Origin: Longimicrobiales bacterium | Lineage (GTDB): Bacteria; Gemmatimonadota; Gemmatimonadetes; Longimicrobiales; Gaopeijiaceae | DNA length: 64,000 nt | Direction of reading: 5' to 3' | Assembly (NCBI GenBank): GCA_965198065.1 | Contig: CBDAON010000004.1 | Location: forward strand, 640,001-704,000 | Shown: one piece after another, positions 30,205 to 40,648 of the stretch | How the letters are laid out: each line of letters opens with the position of its first letter | Position numbering within the stretch: the stretch's first letter is position 1 | The notes under the pieces: generated by a model | Told to the model about the DNA's origin: nothing | The model's input: the letters and a program-made list of their open reading frames with translations, nothing else | Database searches by the model: none | Made by a program: the position numbers and the translations under genes

Positions 30205-31137
30205 ATGGGCGGTGTACGTAATGGGGTGACCGATCCGATGCGACGAAGCACGGGAGGCCCCGTGCTAGAGGTCCTCGAGGCTCGGATTCTGGAGCGCCCC
30301 AACCTCGTGCATGGCTTCACCACCCGTCATGGCGGGGTGAGCCGCGGTCCATACGCCCACCTGAACCTCTCCGCGTCGTGCGGGGACGGGCACCCGTCCG
30401 TGGCCGAGAACCGCGCCAGAGTCGGCGATGCCCTCGGCCTGGACGTTCTCGCGTTCGCGGACCAGGTCCACGGCAGCTCCGTGCTCACCGTGGATAACGT
30501 GCAGGACGACACGTGGTCGGTCGGGGAGGGCGACGCCCTGATCACGGACCGGCCCGGAATCGGGCTCGTGGCGCAGACGGCCGACTGCACGCCCGTTCTG
30601 ATCTTCGATCCCGAGCGACAGGCCGTGGCGGCGGTGCACTCCGGATGGCGCGGCGTGGTCCGGAACGTGGTGGGCGCTGCCGTGTCGGCCCTCACCACGG
30701 TCTACGGCTCGAATCCGAGCGACCTGGTCGCGGCGCTCGGTCCGGCCATCTCGAAGACTCGCTACCGCGTGGGCCCCGAGGTCCTGGCAGCCGTGGAGAG
30801 GGCCTTCGGCGCGCCGGACGACGGGCTCGTCGGCCCGCGCGACGGGGAGGGGGGCGCCACCCTGGACGTCTCCGAGGCGGTAAGACGCCAGCTGGTCGGA
30901 GCAGGACTCTGGCGGGAGAACGTAGAGCGTCTCGCGATCTGCACCTACGAGGACTCGCGCTTCTTCTCCTCCCGTCGAGCGCGGAAGGGCCCGTTCGGCA
31001 GCCAGGGTGGGATCATCGGTCTCATCGGCCGTCCGTCCGACGCTCGGTCCTTGCGCAATCCCGGGCGCGCGCTGCACCGTGGACGTGGCATCCACGCCGT
31101 TTGGTCAAGAGATGGATCGAGACAACGGAGAATCTGA
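30205..31137 (+). CDS. pgeF: Peptidoglycan editing factor PgeF/YfiH (purine nucleoside phosphorylase LACC1 family)
   Basis: HGFTTR.GGVS, QVHG, TADCTPV and HSGWRG motifs. Start uncertain. Confidence 0.92.
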   Translation: MGGVRNGVTDPMRRSTGGPVLEVLEARILERPNLVHGFTTRHGGVSRGPYAHLNLSASCGDGHPSVAENRARVGDALGLDVLAFADQVHGSSVLTVDNVQDDTWSVGEGDALITDRPGIGLVAQTADCTPVLIFDPERQAVAAVHSGWRGVVRNVVGAAVSALTTVYGSNPSDLVAALGPAISKTRYRVGPEVLAAVERAFGAPDDGLVGPRDGEGGATLDVSEAVRRQLVGAGLWRENVERLAICTYEDSRFFSSRRARKGPFGSQGGIIGLIGRPSDARSLRNPGRALHRGRGIHAVWSRDGSRQRRI

Positions 31138-32190
31138 TGAAATCGTCATTCGGCCGAGGCTTTTCTCCAGGTGGTGCTGTCGGCCGCCCTCCTGGGGATC
31201 ACGGTACCCGAGGACGCCCGGGCGCAGCTTCGGGTGCTCCAGACCAACTCCCGCGGATCGAGCGTCCACCTGATCGATCCCGGGACTCAGCGAGTGGTTG
31301 GAGTGATCGAGGGGATCCCGGTCAACCACGGCGTGGCAGCCTCCGCGGACGGCCGCCGCATCTACGTCAGCAGTGAGGCGGAAGCCGCAGTGATGGTCGT
31401 CGACACCGAGTCCATGGAGATCATCCGGACGATCACGGTCTCGGCGCGGCCCAACAACATTGCGCTGACCCCCGACGGCACGAAGCTATACGTGGCGATT
31501 AACGCCCGGCCGGGTGCGGTGGACGTCATCGACACTCGCACGCTCGAAAACGTGAAGACGATTCCCCATCCCGGGGGTGTCCACAACATCTACGTGACTC
31601 CGGACGGGACCGCGGTCATCGCAGGGTCCATCTCGGGCGACCGGCTGACGGCGTACGACACGCGCACGGAAGAGGAAATCTGGGCGTGGGAAGGGGAGTC
31701 CATTCGCCCGATGGCCATCGGCTGGAAGCCGGACGGCTCGACGGACAAGATCTACATCCAGGTCTCGGGCCATCACGGATTCGTCGTATTCGACTGGGCG
31801 ACGAGAAGTGAGGTCACCCGCATCACGCTTCCGAGCGTGCCTGAGTCGGAGCGCTACCTGGGGGACGGCCAGGGCACCCGTTACAACGGAGCGCCCGCAC
31901 ACGGGATCGGGGTCTCTCCCGACGGGCGCACGGTCTGGTCGACGAGCCGGATGAACAGCCATGTGTACGTGTACTCGGTCTATCCGGAGCTGGAGCTTCT
32001 GGCCAGCATTCCAGTCGGCACGGACCCGGATTGGATCACATTCACGCCCGACAATCGCTTCGCTTACGTCGCCAACGCCGTATCCAGGAACGTGACGGCC
32101 ATCGACATGCGGACCTACCAGCCGGTCGCGACGATTCCCGTGGGGGAGGGACCGAAGCGGAATGCGGTGATCCGGCTTCCAGCGAGATAG
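31137..32190 (+). CDS. Exported YVTN/YncE-type beta-propeller protein; apparent +1 frameshift in the signal-peptide region
   Basis: YVTN-like repeats (DGRRIYVS, DGTKLYVA, FAYVAN). The ATG at 31137 has a GGAG RBS and TGATG overlap and is one base out of frame with the 31171 ORF at TTTT 31161-31164. Confidence 0.8.
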
Positions 32191-32198
32191 CTCTCGGG

Positions 32199-32603
32199 AT
32201 GATCGGGCGACGCGCGGCGCCCGGCGGGGAAACCGCGACCGGCGAGCGAGCGGGGCCCAGGCGGCTCGTCACTGCTCTCGTTCTTGCGGGCCCCGTCGCC
32301 CTGACCGCCTGCGGCGTCGCCCCAGTGACGTCGTCCCGCGGTCCCGCCCCCGGTAGCGCCGCCGCCGACAGCGCCCCTTCGGAGACCGTCGAGGGCGCCG
32401 CGATTCTCCAGCGCAGCTGCACGGAGTGTCACGGCCTCGGGGGGCTAACGGCCTATAGCGCGTACTGGGGCGAGCCCGAGTGGCGCTCGATGATCGAGAC
32501 CATGGTGGGCTATGGAGCCGTGCTGACCCCGGAGGAGCTGGACGTGCTGGCGCGGTACCTGGGCGTGAACTACGGGACCGCCAGTTCGGAACCGACGCGA
32601 TAG
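32199..32603 (+). CDS. Small monoheme c-type cytochrome lipoprotein
   Basis: Lipobox LTAC, CTECH heme motif, W..MI..MV.YGA.LT.EE...LARYL. Confidence 0.8.
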   Translation: MIGRRAAPGGETATGERAGPRRLVTALVLAGPVALTACGVAPVTSSRGPAPGSAAADSAPSETVEGAAILQRSCTECHGLGGLTAYSAYWGEPEWRSMIETMVGYGAVLTPEELDVLARYLGVNYGTASSEPTR

Positions 32604-32629
32604 GATCCGAGGGGTCGCTCGGGGGAGGA

Positions 32630-33083
32630 CCGCTTCCTCCCATCTCGCCGACGGACGCGCCGCCGGCACCCCTCCCCAGAGCAATTCCTCTTCGAGCAGC
32701 TCCCTCAGGTCGATCCCGCCGTGCCGGAGCCGGTCCCCGACTTCGTCTTCCACCGGTCCCTTCCCGACGACTTCGACGCCTGATCACCTCACCCCGAGGT
32801 CAGCGACACCCTCGGGCGCGAAGGCGCACTGATTGAGCAGGCGCCGAGATGAGCGGGAATCGCCCAAACCCGGCCGCCGGGGCTCGGGGGTTCACACCCC
32901 CCCCACCTATCCCAACATCTCTCCGACCGGTTTCTCCATTTCCCCATCAACCCCGTCCTGCCACAACACCTTCGCGTCTCTCGGCCCGCCCGGGTACCTC
33001 CACCCTCCCTCGTTTGCCCACACGACAGCCCCCGCCGTAGCTTCCTTCCCCGCATCGGAGCAGCGTTGGATTTCCTTTCCCTT
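32630..33083 (+). mobile_element. Relic 3' end of an IS91/ISCR-like element (transposase C-terminal fragment + oriIS-like end)
   Basis: PLPPISP..APP followed, in another frame, by QFLFEQLPQVDPAVPEPVPDFVFHRSLPDDFDA* (32682-32783). It ends in the repeat copy containing GCGTTGGATTTCCTTTCCC. Family call is from recalled motifs. Confidence 0.55.
33041..33083 (+). repeat. Direct repeat copy 1 (43 bp, 39/43 identical to 36994-37036)
   Basis: cttccttccccgcatcggagcagcgttggatttcctttccctt. Confidence 0.9.
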
Positions 33084-33145
33084 CCGGGTGGCTGCACGTT
33101 CGCGCTTGGCGGTACCGAGTAGTGTAGCCGTTTACCGGAGGTCCT

Positions 33146-34273
33146 TTGACGGGCTGGCCAACGGTCAAGATTCTAACGGTCCTCGGGGCACGCCCACAGT
33201 TCATAAAGGCGGCTTCAGTCACGAGGGTCCTGCGCGCACGCGGCTGGTCGGAGATCATCGTTCACACGGGTCAGCACTACGACGACCGTATGTCAGCCGT
33301 ATTCTTCCGCGAACTGGATCTGCCCGAACCGGACATCAACCTCAAGGTCGGCTCGGGCACGCACGCTTGGCAGACTGCCCAGATGCTGGCTCGGCTCGAG
33401 CCCATCATCGAGTCCGCGTCCCCGGATGTGGTTCTGCTCTACGGCGACACCAATTCGACGCTGGCGGGCGCGCTGGCGGCCTGCAAGCTGGGCGTTCTGG
33501 TGGTCCACATCGAAGCGGGAATGCGGTCGTTCAACCGCAGGCAGCCGGAGGAGCACAATCGGATCGTCACGGATCACCTCTCGGATGTTCTCTTCTGCGC
33601 GACGCAGACGGCTATGAAGAACCTGACCAGGGAGGGTCTGGAGGGTCGAGCGTACCTCGTTGGTGACACGATGCTCGACGCGCTCCTGCACTACATCCCG
33701 ATGGCAGCGTCGCGATCATCGATCCTGGATGAGCTGGGGCTGACGCCGCAACAGTATGTATTCGCTACGGCGCACCGGTCCTACAACGTTGACGATCCAG
33801 ATCAGCTGGCCGCGATTGTTGCCGCGCTGCAGTCCATAGAGGGGGAAGTGATATTCCCGGTGCATCCCAGGACGCGTGCCCGACTCGAGGCCGCCGGCAT
33901 CGTGGTCGATTCACAGGAGAGGGGGCTACGCATAGTCGAGCCGTGTGGCTACCTCGACGCGCTTCAGCTGGAGCGGCATGCGCGAGCCATCGTGACCGAC
34001 TCCGGCGGTGTCCAAAAGGAAGCGTACATGCTTGCCGTGCCGTGCATCGTGATCCGGCCGGAGACGGAGTGGCCCGAGACGCTCAGCGATGTCTGGGGCC
34101 AGCTGGCCGATGTGCGTGACCCCGGGTTCGCGGATCTGATCGCAGCCTGCCAGCCGCTGGTACCGCCTTTGCCGGCGATCTTCGGCGACGGCCAGGCCTC
34201 GGGGCACATCGTGGACCGTCTGGCAGAGGCGATCGCCTCGTCGCGGTCGATTCCACCTCCGAGAGAACCGTAA
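33146..34273 (+). CDS. wecB: UDP-N-acetylglucosamine 2-epimerase (non-hydrolysing)
   Basis: GARPQFIK, HTGQHYD, GDTNSTLAGAL, HIEAG.RS and TDSGGVQKEAY motifs. GGAGG precedes the TTG start. Confidence 0.95.
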   Translation: MTGWPTVKILTVLGARPQFIKAASVTRVLRARGWSEIIVHTGQHYDDRMSAVFFRELDLPEPDINLKVGSGTHAWQTAQMLARLEPIIESASPDVVLLYGDTNSTLAGALAACKLGVLVVHIEAGMRSFNRRQPEEHNRIVTDHLSDVLFCATQTAMKNLTREGLEGRAYLVGDTMLDALLHYIPMAASRSSILDELGLTPQQYVFATAHRSYNVDDPDQLAAIVAALQSIEGEVIFPVHPRTRARLEAAGIVVDSQERGLRIVEPCGYLDALQLERHARAIVTDSGGVQKEAYMLAVPCIVIRPETEWPETLSDVWGQLADVRDPGFADLIAACQPLVPPLPAIFGDGQASGHIVDRLAEAIASSRSIPPPREP

Positions 34274-34278
34274 CGGGC

Positions 34279-36034
34279 ATGGCGGGGGCCCTGTACCTCG
34301 GCATCAATCTGATGATGGATCCATCGGTCGCGCTGGTGTCGGATGGCGTGGTCCTGGCTTACTCGGAAGAGGAGCGCCACACTCGCATCAAGCACGCGGC
34401 CGGACTGTATCCGCGCCGGGCCTTGAAGTGGTGCCTGAGCCGCGCCGGAGCGACGCTGCAAGACCTGGAAACCGTATCCATTAACTGGGACCTGGAGGCC
34501 TACACCGACGGGCGGATGGCCGCGTTTTACGAGTCGATGCGACGGCGCTACCCGGTGGACGCCGCCACGATCACGTTTCAGCAGCGCAATCTGCGAACGC
34601 GCGAGCTCGGCCAGTATCGCAGGATGCATGAATTTCGAGTGGCGTCGGCTTTTCGCGGAGCCCCGCTTTCCGCGCATATTGGGCTACCCTCACCATTATA
34701 TCCACGCGTTCCACGCGTTCCAGCAATCGCCGTTCGACGAGGCCATCTGCGTCACGGTCGACGGCTCCGGCGATCAGCACTGCACGGTGATCTGGAAGTG
34801 CGGGCACGATGGGATCACTCCGGTGCAAGAGCACGTCATGCCCGACTCTTTGGGCTGGTACTACGCGGCATTCACGGAATACCTCGGTTTCGCGGCCTAT
34901 GACGGTGAATACAAGGTCATGGGGCTCGCGGCCTACGGCGAGTCCGATGCCGCGATCGCGGAGTGCGTCGCGCGAGTGCTGCAGGTGGATGCGGAGAGCG
35001 GTACCTACACGGTCCAGCCCAACTACATTCACTACGGACAGCATTCGTATTCGACACGTCATACCGATGAGCTCGCGGTGGTCATGGGGGCGGAGCCCCG
35101 CCGGCCCGACGAACCCATTACGCATTGGCACGAGAACGTCGCGTTCGCGGTCCAGCGGCGACTGGAGGAGGCCGTTCTCGCCATCCTGATGCCGGTGGTG
35201 CGTAAAACCGGGATTCACAAGGTGTGTCTATCGGGTGGGGTCGCTCTGAATGTGAAGCTGAACAGTCGGATCTTCAGTCACCCCGAGATCGAGGACGTCT
35301 TTGCGCATCCGCTGTGCGCCGACTGCGGAGCGGCGGCCGGCGCCGCGCTGTTCGCGTGCTATCGAGAAACCGGTTCCAAACCGGAACGCCTGCGCTCGCT
35401 GGCCCTCGGGTACGAGGAACCCGAGGACACCATCGAGAGGGTCCTCGAGCAGACGGGAGTGCTCTACGAGCGACCGCCGGACATCTGCGCCGCGGTCGCG
35501 GAGGAGCTTGTTCAGGGTCGGGTTGTCGGCTGGTTCCAGGGACGGATGGAAGCTGGCCCGCGCGCGCTCGGGCAGCGCAGCATCCTGGTCGATCCGAGGC
35601 GGGCCGAGAACCGCGATCGGGTGAACGCAGTCGTGAAGTTCCGAGAATACTGGAGACCTTTCTGCCCGTCCATCAGAACGGAAGCCATGGCGCGATACTT
35701 CGATCGCTACACCGAAGCACCGTTCATGATCATCGCGTTCGATGCGAACGATCGTTTACGTCGTGAGGCTCCCGCGATCGTGCACGTAGATGGTACGTCG
35801 CGTGTACAGGCCGTGCGGGAGGCGGACCATCCACTCTACTACAAGCTGCTGACCGCGTTCGAGGCACGAACGGGCGTACCGGTCGTCTTGAACACGTCAT
35901 TCAACGTCAAAGGCGAGCCGATCGTACGCACGATCACGGATGCGCTAAGAACCTTCTGGTCGACCGGTATCGAGGTCCTGGCAGCTGGTGGTTTCATCGT
36001 GCGTAAGCCTGGTCTCGACAATCGCGGGGGATGA
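34279..36034 (+). CDS. NodU/CmcH-family carbamoyltransferase, split by an apparent +1 frameshift near 34633
   Basis: N-terminal EEERHTRIKH, then HH..HA, DGSGD, EYKVMGLAAYG, GPRALGQRSI, KFREYWRPFCP and LNTSFN. Removing one T from AATTTCG joins the two ORFs. Confidence 0.9.
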
Positions 36035-36073
36035 CGCGCTGATCCGTAGGTTTGAGCGTGAGAGGAGACCACG

Positions 36074-36892
36074 TTGTCGCGAGCGTTCGAGTACGATAGC
36101 TACCGGGAGCTCCTGCGGGAGGCTCTGCATCAGGGCAAGCGAGTGGTCGCCTTTCGAGACATGCCGGATTCCGATCCGTTTCTTCTGCTGAGGCACGACA
36201 TCGATTTCTCGATCGAACGCGCCCTCGTCATGGCAAGAATCGAGGAGGCGCTGGGTGTCACCGCAACCTATTTCGTGCTGCTCTCGGCGCCCTACTACAA
36301 CGCGCTGGAGGCTCGCAGCCTGCGAATGCTCCGCGAAATCGTCAGTGCGGGTCACGAGCTTGGACTTCACTACGAGGTGGTGAGTCTCGAGGGGGTCGCC
36401 CGGGATCGCTGGCAGGGCGTGGTCGAGGCGCAATGTGGCGCTCTGAGCGCGGTACTCGAGGTGGAGATCGGCACGGTCGCGCAGCACAAACCGACGCGCG
36501 CGGGGGTGCTCTGGGCACCCCGTGGCTTCCAGGACGCCTACGCGGACGAGTTCGTCGGGCGGATCCCCTACTTGAGCGATAGTCGGATGGTGTTCGACTT
36601 GGAGCAGGCGAGACGGGTGATGAGCTCGAATGCTCGGGTGCAGCTGCTGATTCATCCGATCTGGTGGAGTGAGCGGCCGCGGAATCGGGGCGAGGTGTTC
36701 GGGCAGCTGAGCGACGAGGTCACCGTGCGGCTCGACCGCCAGCTGACCGGCGAGCACGAGGCGATCGAGGCGCGTTTGGACGAAGCCATAGGATCGGGTC
36801 CCCCGCGTGGGAGACCGCCGGTGCCGTACCGAGAAGCCGCGGTTGGCACGTGCCGAAGTGGCTCGGATAAGGCGAGAACCCCCTGGACTTAG
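36074..36892 (+). CDS. Polysaccharide deacetylase-like protein
   Basis: LLRHDIDF, ATYF, GHELGLH, YLSDS and QLLIHPIWW motifs. The C-terminal tail reads into the IS relic. Confidence 0.75.
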   Translation: MSRAFEYDSYRELLREALHQGKRVVAFRDMPDSDPFLLLRHDIDFSIERALVMARIEEALGVTATYFVLLSAPYYNALEARSLRMLREIVSAGHELGLHYEVVSLEGVARDRWQGVVEAQCGALSAVLEVEIGTVAQHKPTRAGVLWAPRGFQDAYADEFVGRIPYLSDSRMVFDLEQARRVMSSNARVQLLIHPIWWSERPRNRGEVFGQLSDEVTVRLDRQLTGEHEAIEARLDEAIGSGPPRGRPPVPYREAAVGTCRSGSDKARTPWT

Positions 36893-37036
36893 AAAGACGG
36901 ATGCCAGGAAATGCGGGTCAGCAGACCGATCCCCCCACCGTCAGGTGATCCTCTTCCACCTCGACCTCCCTCACCCGATCGCCCCAGCTCGCACTTCCTT
37001 CCCCCTATCGGAGCAGCATTGGATTTCCTATCCCTT
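36845..37036 (+). mobile_element. Second, more eroded IS91/ISCR-like relic (transposase C-terminal fragments + oriIS-like end)
   Basis: Frameshifted fragments ARI..E.PL / CQEMRV / TDPPTVR / ILFHLDLPHPIAPAR run directly into repeat copy 2, which contains GCATTGGATTTCCTATCCC. Confidence 0.6.
36994..37036 (+). repeat. Direct repeat copy 2
   Basis: cttccttccccctatcggagcagcattggatttcctatccctt. Confidence 0.9.
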
Positions 37037-37097
37037 TCCGTCTGGCACCTTCGAGCCGATCCGCCAGATCCTCGCACAGCGCTCGGGAGTTCTGCCG

Positions 37098-37883
37098 CTA
37101 CCCACTCCTATCACCTCGCCGCTCGACTCTTTCGATCATCTCCACATAACCGGCCACGACCCGAGTCTCCCACCCGCCGCCGAGGGCGTCACCGACTCCG
37201 AGCACATCAACGAATAGCGTCTGGAACGCCGCGAGCCTCTCGCGAGGAAGCGACAGCAGCACCTGCTTCTCGAGCCCTTCGATATCCAGCTTCATGACCA
37301 AGTCGCTCGCGTGGAGGTACGCGATGGCCTCGTCCACTATCTCCGCTAATGGCCTGACCCCGACGCGAATCACTTGATCCGACCGCGGGTGTGGCAACAA
37401 TGAGCTGTACTTCCCGTCGGACGAAACGTGGAAGTCCCGCTCCCCGGTCTCACCCACGCCGCAGGCCCCGGCGACGATGGTCGCGCGATCCGCGTACGGC
37501 GCGAGATTCTCTCTCAGGTACGTGAGGTTCGCCGGATCTGGCTCGACGCAGAAGATCCTGTTGCCGCGATGCCGAGACAGGAAGTAGAGCGCACTGATCC
37601 CAACGTTCGAGCCCACATCGAGGACGCCGCACGGCCGTTCCCCCGACAGCGGGTAGTCCTGCCTAACGAAGATCGAAAAGAACGTGCGCGCCGCTTCGTG
37701 GTTGCGCAGATGGACTGAGACCGCGCCGATTGGGGTGCGGGTTCGGAGCGTCGGCGAACCGGATCCCGAGGCGAGGAACCACAGGTACGTGAGCGGATTC
37801 TCGACGACGAGAAACGTCCGCCAGGCCGCCCGACGGCTGTGGGGATTCGCGACAGCACGCAGGAATCGCCTTAGCCTCGACAT
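37098..37883 (-). CDS. FkbM-family methyltransferase
   Basis: LDVGSNVG, VEPDP.N...L..N and KLDIEG.E motifs. Confidence 0.88.
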   Translation of the reverse strand: MSRLRRFLRAVANPHSRRAAWRTFLVVENPLTYLWFLASGSGSPTLRTRTPIGAVSVHLRNHEAARTFFSIFVRQDYPLSGERPCGVLDVGSNVGISALYFLSRHRGNRIFCVEPDPANLTYLRENLAPYADRATIVAGACGVGETGERDFHVSSDGKYSSLLPHPRSDQVIRVGVRPLAEIVDEAIAYLHASDLVMKLDIEGLEKQVLLSLPRERLAAFQTLFVDVLGVGDALGGGWETRVVAGYVEMIERVERRGDRSG

Positions 37884-38019
37884 GGTTCTACGCCGGCAGG
37901 GCGCGCCTCGGCCCGGGACTACCCGGTACGCAGAATCCGCCTTGCATCCGGTCGGTGCAGCCTTTCCCTACCCCACCGCCCCGTGGCACTTCTTGTACCT
38001 TCCAGGGGTCCTGGCGCGG

Positions 38020-38134
38020 TGGTATCCAGGGGTACGAAAGGGCGCGGTTAAGCCCTTGTCGGGGTGTCGCGGGAGCTTACGTAGTGACACCCGTACCCCT
38101 GGATGTCAACGGGTTACGGCACAATTACGGCACA
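38020..38134. other. Structured inverted-repeat element plus tandem 10-mer (att/arm-site-like)
   Basis: Perfect 13-bp stem 38024-38036/38092-38104 encloses two hairpins; TTACGGCACA occurs at 38114 and 38125. Confidence 0.55.
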
Positions 38135-38248
38135 GTGGGGAGACCACACCTCCGCCCGCACCATTCATGAGGCCCTGAAGGGGCAGCATCGCCGCAGTGG
38201 TCGCACGCATGGTCTTGCCTCCCTGTTCAAGGTCGCTAGATGGACATC

Positions 38249-38489
38249 TCACCACGTAATCCCCGGCTCTTCGAGTAACGCCTGGTATCGGGGGTCGTCG
38301 CGGAGGAGGTCCGAGTGGTCCCCTGTTGCGTCGAATAAAGGCCCTGGCCTTGGTTCCATGATGCTCGCCAAGCCACCCGTTAGAAACGTCCAGGTGGGCA
38401 ATGTCGAGCGCGAGCACCTGCCAGGTCCCAGTCCCATGCCGTTCCCAGGGGCTTTCCCACCACCCGACGCGGCGACCGCCGCTTCGAAA
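38249..38489 (-). pseudogene. 3' remnant of a TPR/TolB-like or Ser/Thr-kinase-type gene truncated at the IS256 end
   Basis: Ends in DLLRDDPRYQALLEEPGITW*, resembling the 'D.LR.DPR(F/Y)Q.LL' C-terminal signature. No 5' part is present. Confidence 0.55.
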
Positions 38490-39923
38490 GAGTCAATCCC
38501 AAAGTTAGTTGAAACTGGAGCGGCCTCCGTCTCAGGCGACAGCATGTGAACGGCTCTCGGGAAGGGTGATCCCGAGGTCCTTCTGGATCGCGGCCCTGAG
38601 GAGCGGGAGGTGTCGGTACCCGAGCAACCTCCGGAGCCGTGACTAGATCTCCAGGAGCGTGGTCGCGAGCCATCGGTGCTTCTGGCTCGAGTTCTTCCAG
38701 TGGTCCACGCGTCCGCACCTCTGCTCGGCCAGGGCGTTCACGGACTCGAGCACGTTGGTGGTCTTGAGCGACTGGCCGACCAGGGGGAAGACTCCCAACC
38801 GGTGGAGGGTGAGGGTCTCCTCGAACCCCTCATCGAGACTGGCCGCCGCGGACTGGTTCACCCCCGCGAGCTCCTGGCGCAGGGCCTTGAGGTCCTTGAC
38901 GGCCTCTTCGTACGTGGGCCGCTGGTAGGCGCGCTGCAGACGCTGGCGCCAGCCCTTCTGCTCCGCTCTCGGCAGATACGAGATCACGTTCTTCCGCTTG
39001 TGCCACTGGCACCGCTGGATGAGCACCTGTCCCTTGAAGACCGCCAGGACGCCGCTCCGGAGACCGCGGGCTCCATCGATCACCACGAGCGCTCCGGCCG
39101 ACAGGTCGAGACCTCGGTCCTTCAGACTCCGAAGGAAGGATCGGATCACCACGGCGTTCTCCGTGTCGGTCTGGACGAACCCGAGGAAGACCTTGTCCCC
39201 CTTGGTCGTCACCCCGAGCGCGACGACCATCTCGTCCTCGGCAAAGCTCTTGCCGTCCAGGACGAGTGCCACCCCACGTCGTAACCCGAGAGGTCCCGCT
39301 CCTGAAACTCCTTCAGCTTCGCGGCCGTGGCCTTCTTGAACTCCCGCGAGACCGTCGACTTCGACAGCCCGATGGCTCCAGGCACCGCCTCGACCGCTGC
39401 CTCGTAGTCCCGGCACGAGATCCCGAGCAGCACCTTCCGAAACAGCCCCTCGTCCATCTCGCCGGGCGAGCCATGCAGCTGCTCATACGCCGCCAGCCTC
39501 GACTCTCCGGCCGGGCCTCGCACCCGCGGTACTCGCACCGGATGCCGCTGGCCGCCCAACCGCACCGACCCTGGGTTATGCCCATGCCGGCAATGTCGAT
39601 CGTCCTCGGTCTTCCTGGCGTGACGTTGCCCCGCCAGTTGCTCCACTTCCTCCTCGAGCATCCGGCCCACCTCCGCCAGTCCCAGCGGAATCAGCTGCCG
39701 GATCAGCTCCACCCGAGGGTCCAGCTCCAGCGCCTCGATCTCCTCCCAACTCACCTCCCTCGGTTCCCCGAGCCGCCGGTCCTTCTTGCCCCCGCTCGAC
39801 GAGCCTTGGCATCCTTCCCATCGGTGGCCTCCTTCCTCTCTTGTGATCCCGTGGTGTGGTCGCACACCCACGTTACCTGAGGTTGGAGGCCGCTTCAATT
39901 TCAACTAAAGATGGGACTCACTC
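38490..39923 (-). mobile_element. IS256-family insertion sequence (1434 bp) with imperfect terminal inverted repeats
   Basis: Left end gagtcaatcccaaagttagttgaaactggagcggcctcc matches the reverse complement of the right end, gagtgagtcccatctttagttgaaattgaagcggcctcc. Confidence 0.9.
38532..39821 (-). pseudogene. IS256 (Mutator-type DDE) transposase with two frameshifts and an in-frame TAG
   Basis: GISCRD, LSKSTVSR, LDG, VIDG..GL, QRCQWHK and TTN.LES.N motifs; AAGGAGG before ATG 39821. Breaks at C5 39789-39793, C4 39272-39275 and TAG 38643-38645. Confidence 0.88.
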
Positions 39924-39962
39924 GTCTGAAACGGTGATCACGATGCCGGGTACGCATCGCAC

Positions 39963-40648
39963 GTGACCGACCGTTACGTCACCGCTCGAGAGACGATGGT
40001 TCACGAGCAGGTCGCTGCCCGTGGAATTAACGACCCACGCGTCCTCACCGCCATGCGGGAGGTGCCCAGAGAGCTGTTCCTTCCCGCCGGCCTCGAGACC
40101 GACCCTGCTACTGTGTACCGGGACGCGGCGCAGCCTGTGGGGCGCGGGCAAACCCTGTCACAGCCGTACATGGTGGGGGCGATGAGCGAGGCCCTTCGGC
40201 TCTCGGAGCGGTCCTCGGTACTCGAGGTCGGTACGGGGACGGGGTACCAGACTGCGGTCCTCGCCCGCATCGCCGGCGAGGTCTGGACGGTCGAGCGCGA
40301 CCCGGTCCTTGCACGGGAGGCGAGGGCCCGGCTCAGCGATCTGGGGATCTCGAACCTGCGCTTCCGGATCGGTGACGGAACCCTGGGATGGGACGAGGGA
40401 GCCCCCCCTACGACGCGATCATCGTGACCGCGGGCGCTCCCGACGTGCCCCCGGCCCTCCCGGAGCAGCTCGCCCCGAACGGCCGACTGGTTGTGCCCGT
40501 CGGGCCCCGCTCCTGGCAGCGACTCCTTCGCTTCACGAAGGGGCCGGACGGAGTCATGGGGCTCCCCGAGGCCCTCATGGAGTGCCGCTTCGTTCCTCTC
40601 GTGGGCCGGGCTGGCTGGAAGAGCTGGAAGAAGGGCTGGGTCGTCTAG
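39963..40648 (+). CDS. pcm: Protein-L-isoaspartate O-methyltransferase; apparent frameshift at C7 (40402-40408)
   Basis: VPRELF, GQTLSQPYMV, LEVGTGTGYQ.A.L and GDG..GW; then, in the second frame, PYDAIIVTAG and CRFVPLVG. Confidence 0.9.

Follow-up and report, generated by a model that had tools for sequence, protein, structure and literature searches.

Eroded 3' Stubs of an IS91/ISCR-Type Element Bracket a Block of Surface-Glycan Genes in a Longimicrobiales Genome

Introduction

Three genes with a likely role in surface-glycan tailoring lie between two copies of a short direct repeat in the stretch of 64,000 nucleotides analyzed here (hereafter the window), which comes from a Longimicrobiales bacterium. 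The locus raises the question of whether the repeats are what is left of a rolling-circle element, whether such an element brought in the genes, and whether the unit can still move.

Results and Discussion

The Repeat Pair and Its Identity

As originally noted, the sequences at 33041–33083 and 36994–37036 form a direct repeat with 39 of 43 identical positions (BLAST E-value 3.7e-11) that flanks three genes, and the peptide fragments described ahead of each copy were found at the expected positions. The repeat period is 3,953 bp, and weaker similarity reaches 65 nt. A genome-wide search for the 43-mer, which the original prediction had suggested, returned these two copies only in the 3.05-Mb assembly, and a 24-nt pattern taken from the repeat had no exact match in a collection of genome contigs. 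No Rfam match and no tRNA were found in the window. Local repeats of comparable quality are not rare (contig C4 has 164 merged entries at separations of up to 10 kb), so it is the identity of this repeat, not its existence, that matters.

The plentiful local repeats in this genome would suit an explanation in which the duplication is unrelated or due to chance and GC-rich reading frames give rise to spurious peptide fragments. The fragments are indeed short and proline-rich and have no Pfam matches: the Y2_Tnp family (PF04986), with which they were to be checked, matched neither the fragments nor anything else in the genome, and a six-frame tblastn search without low-complexity filter gave noise only. 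The fragments sit C-terminal to the PF04986 domain, which occupies residues 205–386 of a 527-aa relative. We used protein, DNA, and end models trained on relatives, with the window excluded from training. The left tail was the best genome-wide match of a protein HMM built from the transposase C-termini of 15 relatives (E-value 5e-5), and the right fragment (36925–36991) was the best genome-wide match of a DNA HMM built from the C-terminal coding stretches of 19 relatives (E-value 5e-4; runner-up 1.5). With a 24-nt matrix built from the ends of 28 relatives, the right and left repeat copies ranked second and third in the genome; three genomic sites scored at least 20, compared with none in each of three shuffles of contig C4. 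A site at C4:486676 (score 18), seemingly inside another gene and within the shuffle range, was left out of this count. A chance origin is thus refuted by models in which these sites take ranks one to three within 3 Mb, as well as by an exact match to the ends of annotated elements (see below), and we regard it as practically untenable.

The left stub begins with a coding part (32633–32783, plus strand) that corresponds to the terminal ~50 codons of an IS91/ISCR-type transposase; it carries a frameshift but keeps the stop codon. This part matched a full-length DNA HMM with an E-value of 1.7e-11 and shows ~70% DNA identity over ~150–165 nt to three relatives (L198, L203, and L209). It is followed by a C-rich 3' non-coding region (32784–33040, plus strand) that separates the transposase stop from the end of the element, and then by the left repeat copy, an oriIS-type end (33041–33083, plus strand) in whose core (33066–33081) a single conserved A is altered, giving CCTTT instead of CCTAT. 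In the right stub, the coding part (36861–36993, plus strand) is an eroded 'ARI..PL.C..EMR..TDPP.V..IL.HLDLPH..APAR' region, which represents the part directly upstream of that kept by the left stub and is 79–83% identical over 52 nt to L214, L221, and L006. A deletion has fused it straight onto the element end, leaving only about 43 nt of end-region sequence. An oriIS-type end lies 3' of the transposase stop, with a spacing of ~295 nt on the left (~190–250 nt in most relatives) that has been deleted on the right. The right repeat copy (36994–37036, plus strand) contains the core TTGGATTTCCTATCCC at 37019–37034, an exact match at 16 of 16 bases to conserved ends on the plasmids NC_013176.1 and NZ_CP020371.1, where these ends lie 193–218 nt behind annotated IS91-family transposases, a position that the original prediction had proposed to look for. 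Published ends for comparison are GCGGTTGAACTTCCTATACC (ISCR27) and GTGGTTTATACTTCCTATACCC (ISCR1). Taken together, the protein, DNA, and end models and the plasmid match bear out the initial reading of the fragments as IS91/ISCR relics and show that each flank is a directly oriented 3' stub of an IS91/ISCR-type element, made up of a transposase tail and an oriIS-type end.

Over their last 38 nt, the two window ends score 34 against each other but at most 25–26 against any of 18 relatives' ends, and among 153 pairs of relatives' ends a score of 34 was reached only by two copies within a single genome (G294). As judged from this comparison, the two ends share a common origin. Beyond the end core their similarity is unremarkable, since 461 of 20,000 random windows score equally well. 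In relatives, CCGT or a similar sequence, a candidate target tetranucleotide, often comes after the core. Two mis-anchored ends (L036 and L063) are part of the end HMM and were excluded from the end-pair, promoter, and matrix analyses; the strict end pattern is absent in 4 of the 24 copies of the end HMM set and in 17 of 27 left-stub loci.

On the 5' side, we found no conserved end (terIS) among the upstream regions of 18 relatives, and ends and junctions fold no better than shuffles (hairpin z-scores −1.2 to +1.3). The likeness between the left and right 5' junctions is modest. A shared terIS or common 5' boundary (ATAGGATC...GACC, at 32597–32633 and 36784–36818) was set aside as unproven, the comparison having been picked after looking: its score of 33 was matched by 2 of 20,000 random windows, 3 of 11,570 TAG-anchored sites, and 155 of 191,268 longer windows. 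The motif was not found at relatives' 5' ends. The TAG on the left, moreover, belongs to a small cytochrome c gene on the host side (32199–32603, plus strand; PF13442, E-value 2e-5) as its native stop, since the homologues P0121 and P0122 terminate there as well. Identity to P0121, P0122, and P0252 is 77–93%, and one genome encodes a cytochrome c with 77% identity.

Relatives in the Host Family

An intact relative (L008) carries both PF04986 and PF14319 above cut-off. It scored 288 bits against NF052416 (ISCR clade Ia; cut-off 925) and 107 against NF033538 (cut-off 125), and is thus ISCR-like but outside clade Ia. The left stub was matched in 54 of 313 family genomes. After removal of three loci (own genome or duplicates) from 30, 18 of the remaining 27 left-stub loci retain less than ~350 nt of the transposase gene. 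The host genome holds three more pieces besides the two bracket stubs. The transposase pieces detected by the full-length DNA HMM in this genome are all 3' tails (three of three), and two further pieces consist of end or promoter region only. The architecture of the window locus recurs in relatives: G294 has two 90–94% identical, 5'-truncated copies, each with its end, 11 kb apart, and additional direct-orientation pieces occur in G238, G314, and G408. An undescribed ISCR-like subgroup therefore leaves 3' stubs widely in the host family.

Genes between the Stubs

The first gene (33146–34273, plus strand) encodes WecB, a non-hydrolysing UDP-GlcNAc 2-epimerase (TIGR00236, 281 bits; cut-off 210). 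Its frame is open, and a GGAGG precedes a TTG start located 62 nt past the left repeat. Two further wecB-like genes (48% and 33%) are present in the host, which has no paralogue of either of the other two genes.

The second gene (34279–36034, plus strand) had been predicted as a carbamoyltransferase. Its assignment to the NodU/CmcH family holds, but a single frameshift near 34634–34690, which had been missed, breaks the gene: the N- and C-terminal Pfam domains lie in two frames, and homologues of ~585 aa align in two pieces. A sequencing error was considered and rejected, as short-read contigs from two studies (X1, possibly the source sample, and X2, the second study) have no gap at this place.

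The third gene (36074–36892, plus strand), previously called a deacetylase, is only polysaccharide-deacetylase-like. It has no Pfam match of its own, although 5 of 20 aligned proteins match PF01522 weakly and its profile matches deacetylase structures with E-values of 5e-4 to 0.04. Homology ends near 36793, after which the frame continues for ~30 codons within the right stub, a feature not previously noted; the product has 272 aa, whereas the top homologues mostly have 237–250 aa.

Homologues of the carbamoyltransferase elsewhere are 58–69% identical, whereas identity within the family does not exceed 42% (300 genomes). Codon atypicality of the block is mild (13th–29th percentile). From these alignments and reading frames, the cargo shows foreign affinity and decay.

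Origin of the Gene Block

We are inclined to think that the block of wecB, carbamoyltransferase, and deacetylase-like gene was delivered long ago by ori-initiated capture, a reading that we hold with somewhat more belief than doubt. In an element copy lying 3' of a glycan operon in a donor, replication would have begun at the oriIS and run out past the element's 5' side, and this read-through would have taken about 3.7 kb of the operon as passenger DNA. A second copy of the element, located behind the cytochrome c gene, may then have received the product, either within it or immediately after it, via homologous recombination or insertion at the end, and differing deletions would afterwards have shrunk both element copies. 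What points to capture is that two ends of one element lie in direct orientation around passenger genes, the arrangement of a sandwich, with the cargo on the side carried by ori-initiated rolling-circle read-through. Moreover, the cargo edges are tight: on the left, wecB starts close behind the repeat, and on the right, the third gene enters the stub. The common origin of the two ends, the foreign affinity of the cargo, the 3' polarity of the transposase pieces in this genome, the like architecture in relatives, and published precedents point the same way.

The surroundings of the bracket suggest another history. Just outside it, an FkbM-family methyltransferase gene (37098–37883, minus strand; TIGR01444, 67 bits; cut-off 37.7) shares the cargo's degree of atypicality (12th percentile of codon adaptation). 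Also present are an IS256, a fragment of a gene tail, and an att-like end that recurs at the ends of tRNA-linked islands; the fkbM gene, the att-like end, and IS256 indicate that the island extends beyond the sandwich. Both fkbM and the glycan genes could thus have come in a larger island, for example a tyrosine-recombinase element, into which the same IS91-type element was later inserted twice. That stubs are common, both in the family and in this genome, agrees with such independent insertions. On the other hand, fkbM is convergent with the cargo and thus belongs to a different operon, and the two bracket ends resemble one another much more than they resemble the other ends in the genome. 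The direct orientation, the position of the cargo on the carried side, and junctions close to the gene ends also argue against two later insertions. We consider the island origin a real possibility, but one that falls clearly short of an even chance.

Direct traces of a capture event were sought in several ways. Neither the single congener nor about 300 family genomes yielded an orthologous flank that could represent an empty site, and no second context for the block appeared in the genomes searched. Among 90 loci with homologues of the deacetylase-like gene, none has the carbamoyltransferase and nine have wecB, never directly adjacent; no end motif was found in these loci. Of the capture originally proposed, the identity of the stubs, their orientation, and the side on which the cargo lies have stood, while neither an empty site nor a donor was recovered and fkbM proved equally atypical. 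The mild codon atypicality and the failure to define a terIS also speak against capture.

Present Mobility

No transposase body was found in either the window or the 87.6%-complete genome, nor was an intact transposase with HUH motif and catalytic tyrosine region, as expected of an autonomous element. In the contigs of four runs, where rare variants are dropped, no circle joint was found at the repeats, and the depth over the cassette is like that of its flanks. A joint between 33284 and 37174 in X1 and X3 has a 27-nt side and lies away from the repeats; it was set aside.

It has been suggested that the unit could be mobilised in trans. A live non-autonomous cassette would require a transposase supplied in trans whose action begins at the right end, terminates at the left, and frees a 3,953-bp circle. 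The right core matches the ends of annotated elements perfectly, other organisms in the same runs have tails of 80–90% similarity, and an 82-bp IS91 oriIS is reported to function with a transposase in trans (PMC13181058). Such activity is nevertheless very improbable in view of the missing transposase body and circle joint, the unchanged depth, the short remnant of the right end (~43 nt), the left core altered at a conserved base, ends that fold no better than shuffles, and a frameshifted cargo. It is likely that the unit is now immobile, and the trans mobilisation originally envisaged is not supported by these data.

A broader idea, which we consider unlikely, is that very short IS91/ISCR end stubs (down to ~45 bp) are the family's dispersed non-autonomous system, with excisable gene circles delimited by successive ends, a portable promoter at each left end, and transposases acting in trans. 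If this were true, surface-glycan and other accessory genes could be shuttled and switched on without a resident element.

A Putative Outward Promoter on the Left Stub

A predicted outward promoter, TTGCCC-N18-TAGCTT (33014–33043, plus strand), faces wecB, and its motif is conserved in the ends of relatives. At the same distance from the end, it occurs in 6 of 28 relatives' ends, compared with a mean of 0.02 (maximum 2) in 2000 shuffles. On the left stub the motif falls below the threshold of a generic sigma-70 scan. It is kept ahead of wecB and absent on the right stub. A row for pyrB, whose strand was wrongly assigned, was ignored in the promoter and codon analyses. The left stub is predicted to supply an outward promoter to an operon fragment with few promoters of its own, in the way that ISCR1 serves the genes next to it, and the conserved motif offers a testable reason for the persistence of stubs ahead of genes.

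Comparison with Known Systems

The locus reveals no new mechanism, and the window copy looks like a fossil. The novelty first claimed for it, capture outside the resistance context, was overstated, as both sandwiches and IS91 capture of non-resistance genes have been published (PMC12772301, PMC7722449, and PMC5737581). We found no report of glycan-gene capture by IS91/ISCR elements in searches on polysaccharide, O-antigen, and Gemmatimonadota, whose scope left out most subscription journals. As of 2018, transposition was experimentally unsupported for any ISCR element, according to one paper (PMC6218425).

The closest counterparts of the stubs are elements on pW2 (NC_013176.1), pKV29 (NC_019312.1), and pTs417 (NZ_CP020371.1), which have the same transposase C-terminal pattern; pW2 and pTs417 also have the same end, 193–218 nt past the stop. 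Intact transposases of the relatives are 46–54% identical to those of the three plasmid elements. Compared with these, the window keeps only 130–150 nt of coding DNA per copy, and an acidic tail (EPVPDFVFDQSLPDDFD type) sets the host-family subgroup apart.

An outward promoter in the oriIS region directed toward a co-oriented gene is known from ISCR1 (PCR1-1 and PCR1-2; PMC6218425); the left stub resembles it in this arrangement, but the hexamers differ and the promoter here is predicted. In Sphingobium herbicidovorans MH, an IS91 circle carries the herbicide-catabolism gene sdpA, with an oriIS 167 bp past the gene (PMC5737581). That system resembles the likely history of the present locus in its IS91-type capture outside resistance, and the locus itself in its conserved oriIS behind a gene; it differs in that an 11-kb circle was observed and transposases are present, neither of which applies to the present locus.

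The overall arrangement is similar to the sandwich model of a remnant ISCR28 oriIS, a gene, and ISCR28 (armA and sul4; PMC12772301) and to the delta-ISCR2–tet(X)–(delta)ISCR2 arrangement (PMC7722449). As described in these two papers, direct-orientation ends surround passenger genes and one or both copies are truncated, as at the present locus. Unlike them, this locus has a glycan-tailoring operon fragment as cargo and two heavily eroded copies, and the genome search turned up no intact element. To the ISCR-type sandwiches, which are known chiefly from resistance genes, it adds one that encloses part of a surface-glycan operon in an uncultured lineage.

Repeat and cassette

The 43-bp direct repeat predicted from the sequence was confirmed at 33041–33083 and 36994–37036, with 39/43 identity and a period of 3,953 bp, and a genome-wide search of the host detected these two copies only. 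The peptide fragments quoted in that prediction were also found, in the frames assigned to them. Between the repeat copies are wecB (TIGR00236, above cut-off), a carbamoyltransferase gene whose coding sequence is split over two frames, and a deacetylase-like third gene. Contigs of two studies span 30500–38296, differ by 0 to 3 substitutions, and are free of gaps in the cassette; thus, the assembly and the carbamoyltransferase frameshift are real, with the reservation that one of the sequencing runs (X1) is possibly the source sample.

Identity of the flanking stubs

PF04986 matched IS91-family transposases in 22 of 61 relatives' genomes, and an intact relative's transposase was matched in 36 of 401. 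The C-terminal pattern given for IS91/ISCR transposases in the original prediction is indeed present in the relatives' proteins, where an acidic tail follows it. Using models trained on relatives only and run genome-wide on the host, we found that the left stub is the top match of the protein HMM (E-value 5e-5) and the right stub that of the C-terminal coding DNA HMM (5e-4; runner-up 1.5). A full-length DNA HMM (57 pieces) matched the two stubs only (1.7e-11 and 0.045). Compared with each other, the two ends reach a score of 34 of 38, and with relatives at most 25–26; among the relatives, only two copies inside one genome (G294) match each other as well. Both ends derive from one element lineage. 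The parent element scores under the cut-offs of the NCBIfam ISCR clade Ia and IS91 models and is, by sequence similarity, ISCR-like. The unit is a relic of the IS91/ISCR family and not an autonomous member.

In the left stub (about 32633–33083), the last ~50 codons, the stop, the non-coding region, and the end are preserved. What survives in the right stub (about 36861–37036) is the stretch of ~45 codons just before those, interrupted by many small deletions and joined directly to the final 43 bp. Homology of the third gene stops near 36793, where its top homologs end, and its frame continues into the right stub.

The oriIS-type end

A core, TT(G/A)A...CCTAT, recurs in most relatives about 200–250 nt past the transposase stop (18 of 24 copies were correctly anchored; the strict pattern was found in 10 of 27 loci). 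With a matrix built from 28 relatives' ends, the top three sites in the host genome were C4:515893, the right copy, and the left copy, and three shuffles gave no equally high scores. In plasmids pW2 and pTs417, GCGGTTGGATTTCCTATCCCC sits 193 and 218 nt past annotated IS91-family transposases, and the right copy matches it exactly over 16 bases. The same core occurs in the published oriIS sequences of ISCR27 and ISCR1. The repeat is therefore an oriIS-type end, as originally predicted. Four copies in three relatives' genomes (L036, L037, L045, and L068) have the same ~30–70 nt beyond the core (TATGGGGCA.GC.GTCAA.ACAC...), pointing to a common target or to the insertion of a second element at the end.

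Three further pieces of this family are present in the host: a bare ~45-bp end directly after a gene's stop (C4:515891–515940 (-)), a tail plus end (C4:2736650–2736881 (-)), and a promoter-region piece behind an IS3-like fragment (C4:2672960–2673030 (-)). The first is followed by what we take to be a fumarate reductase/succinate dehydrogenase flavoprotein gene, and the second presumably by an ion-channel gene.

The wecB gene starts 62 nt past the left repeat, and a promoter-like motif in the left stub faces it. TTG-N17/18-TA..T was found at a constant spacing from the core in 6 of 28 relatives' ends (shuffle mean 0.02); the -10 hexamer alone occurs in 9 of 28, a count also attained at least once in 2000 shuffles. 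The motif is also present in the pieces at C4:2736.8k and C4:2673.0k, each before a co-oriented gene. Neither the right stub, whose neighboring gene is convergent, nor the C4:515.9k end, which has a co-oriented gene downstream, contains it. A generic promoter scan did not report the left-stub motif.

Cargo and surroundings

Homologs of the carbamoyltransferase reach 58–69% identity elsewhere and at most 42% among 300 family genomes; the best homologs of the third gene (35–45%) come from many phyla. Codon use of the cargo is mildly atypical (13th–29th percentile), and the convergent methyltransferase gene fkbM outside the bracket is equally atypical. No other locus with the three genes in this order turned up: among 90 loci of deacetylase homologs, none had the carbamoyltransferase and 9 had wecB, while 19 carbamoyltransferase loci were seen with 1.5-kb flanks only. 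No empty site was found in the genomes reached.

Outside the bracket are fkbM, an att-like end, and an IS256 element. A 23–25-nt sequence at 38112–38137 recurs in the host at C4:2813095, 2803725, 2713256, and 2807031; these copies lie behind apparent tRNA fragments, an arrangement that we take to resemble the ends of tRNA-targeting integrative elements. No tRNA is near 38112–38137; elsewhere in the host, 18 tRNA genes are arrayed over 2.4 kb (C4:1710874–1713237). The lone 3' tail of a paralogous gene family, ending ...RYQALLEE.GITW, lies at 38230–38350 (-), with 88–90% identity to copies at C4:1894268, C4:235010, and C3:45662, gene tails stranded beside island ends. The IS256/Mutator-family element (38462–39951) has 67-nt inverted repeats and is frameshifted in the window; near-identical copies are abundant in the community, since its contig depth is about 30–120x that of its flanks in four runs. 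Directly past it is pcm (protein-L-isoaspartate methyltransferase, 39963–40648), apparently split over two frames; one low-depth contig of run X2 has a 2-base gap at 40402.

Origin of the unit

IS91-family transposases start at oriIS, finish at terIS, and frequently read through terIS (PMC13181058), and in a capture sandwich the gene lies between a remnant carrying an additional oriIS on its upstream side and an element on its downstream side (PMC12772301, citing Yuan 2024). Of the ISCR-style capture originally predicted, the sandwich geometry was found: the two ends share an origin, and the junctions are tight. The capture step itself we infer. Replication begun at the element's ori would have captured an operon fragment, which would have integrated at a sister copy of the element and then decayed, the left end perhaps being retained as a promoter. 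We regard this course of events as somewhat probable.

Its main rival, two local hops of the element into a pre-existing island, we consider possible but rather doubtful. It would fit the presence of fkbM, the att-like end, and IS256 outside the bracket, and also the commonness of such stubs: left-stub matches occur in 54 of 313 family genomes, and at 18 of 27 loci inspected just the last fifth of the transposase gene is left, although the query was the tail itself. Four relatives' loci (L061, L062, L063, and L065, in G294, G238, G314, and G408) have direct-orientation pieces of the same element 5–14 kb apart, amid an ABC permease and a metallo-hydrolase, an Mla-type transporter with OmpA and ice-binding-like genes, or other accessory genes; with their unrelated cargo, they fit either capture or two hops. 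In one complete genome (G010; L003/L023), seven equal-scoring copies of a shorter Y2_Tnp element (402-aa frame) have a different end; they represent a different subfamily, apparently active recently.

Mobilization in trans at present, which the prediction raised as a possibility, is very improbable: the cargo is decaying, a transposase body was sought in the host assembly (3.05 Mb, completeness 87.6%) without success, the contigs revealed no joint at the repeats, and cassette depth is like that of the flanks. As contigs drop rare variants, the missing joint means only that a circle is not abundant.

Comparison with known systems

In the literature searched, with key papers and supplements partly covered, no report of glycan genes as IS91/ISCR cargo was found. 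Capture outside resistance by IS91-type elements, with the circle observed (PMC5737581), and outward promoters in oriIS (PMC6218425) are already known from the literature. In its way of working, the unit in the window resembles the ISCR28 and ISCR2 sandwiches.
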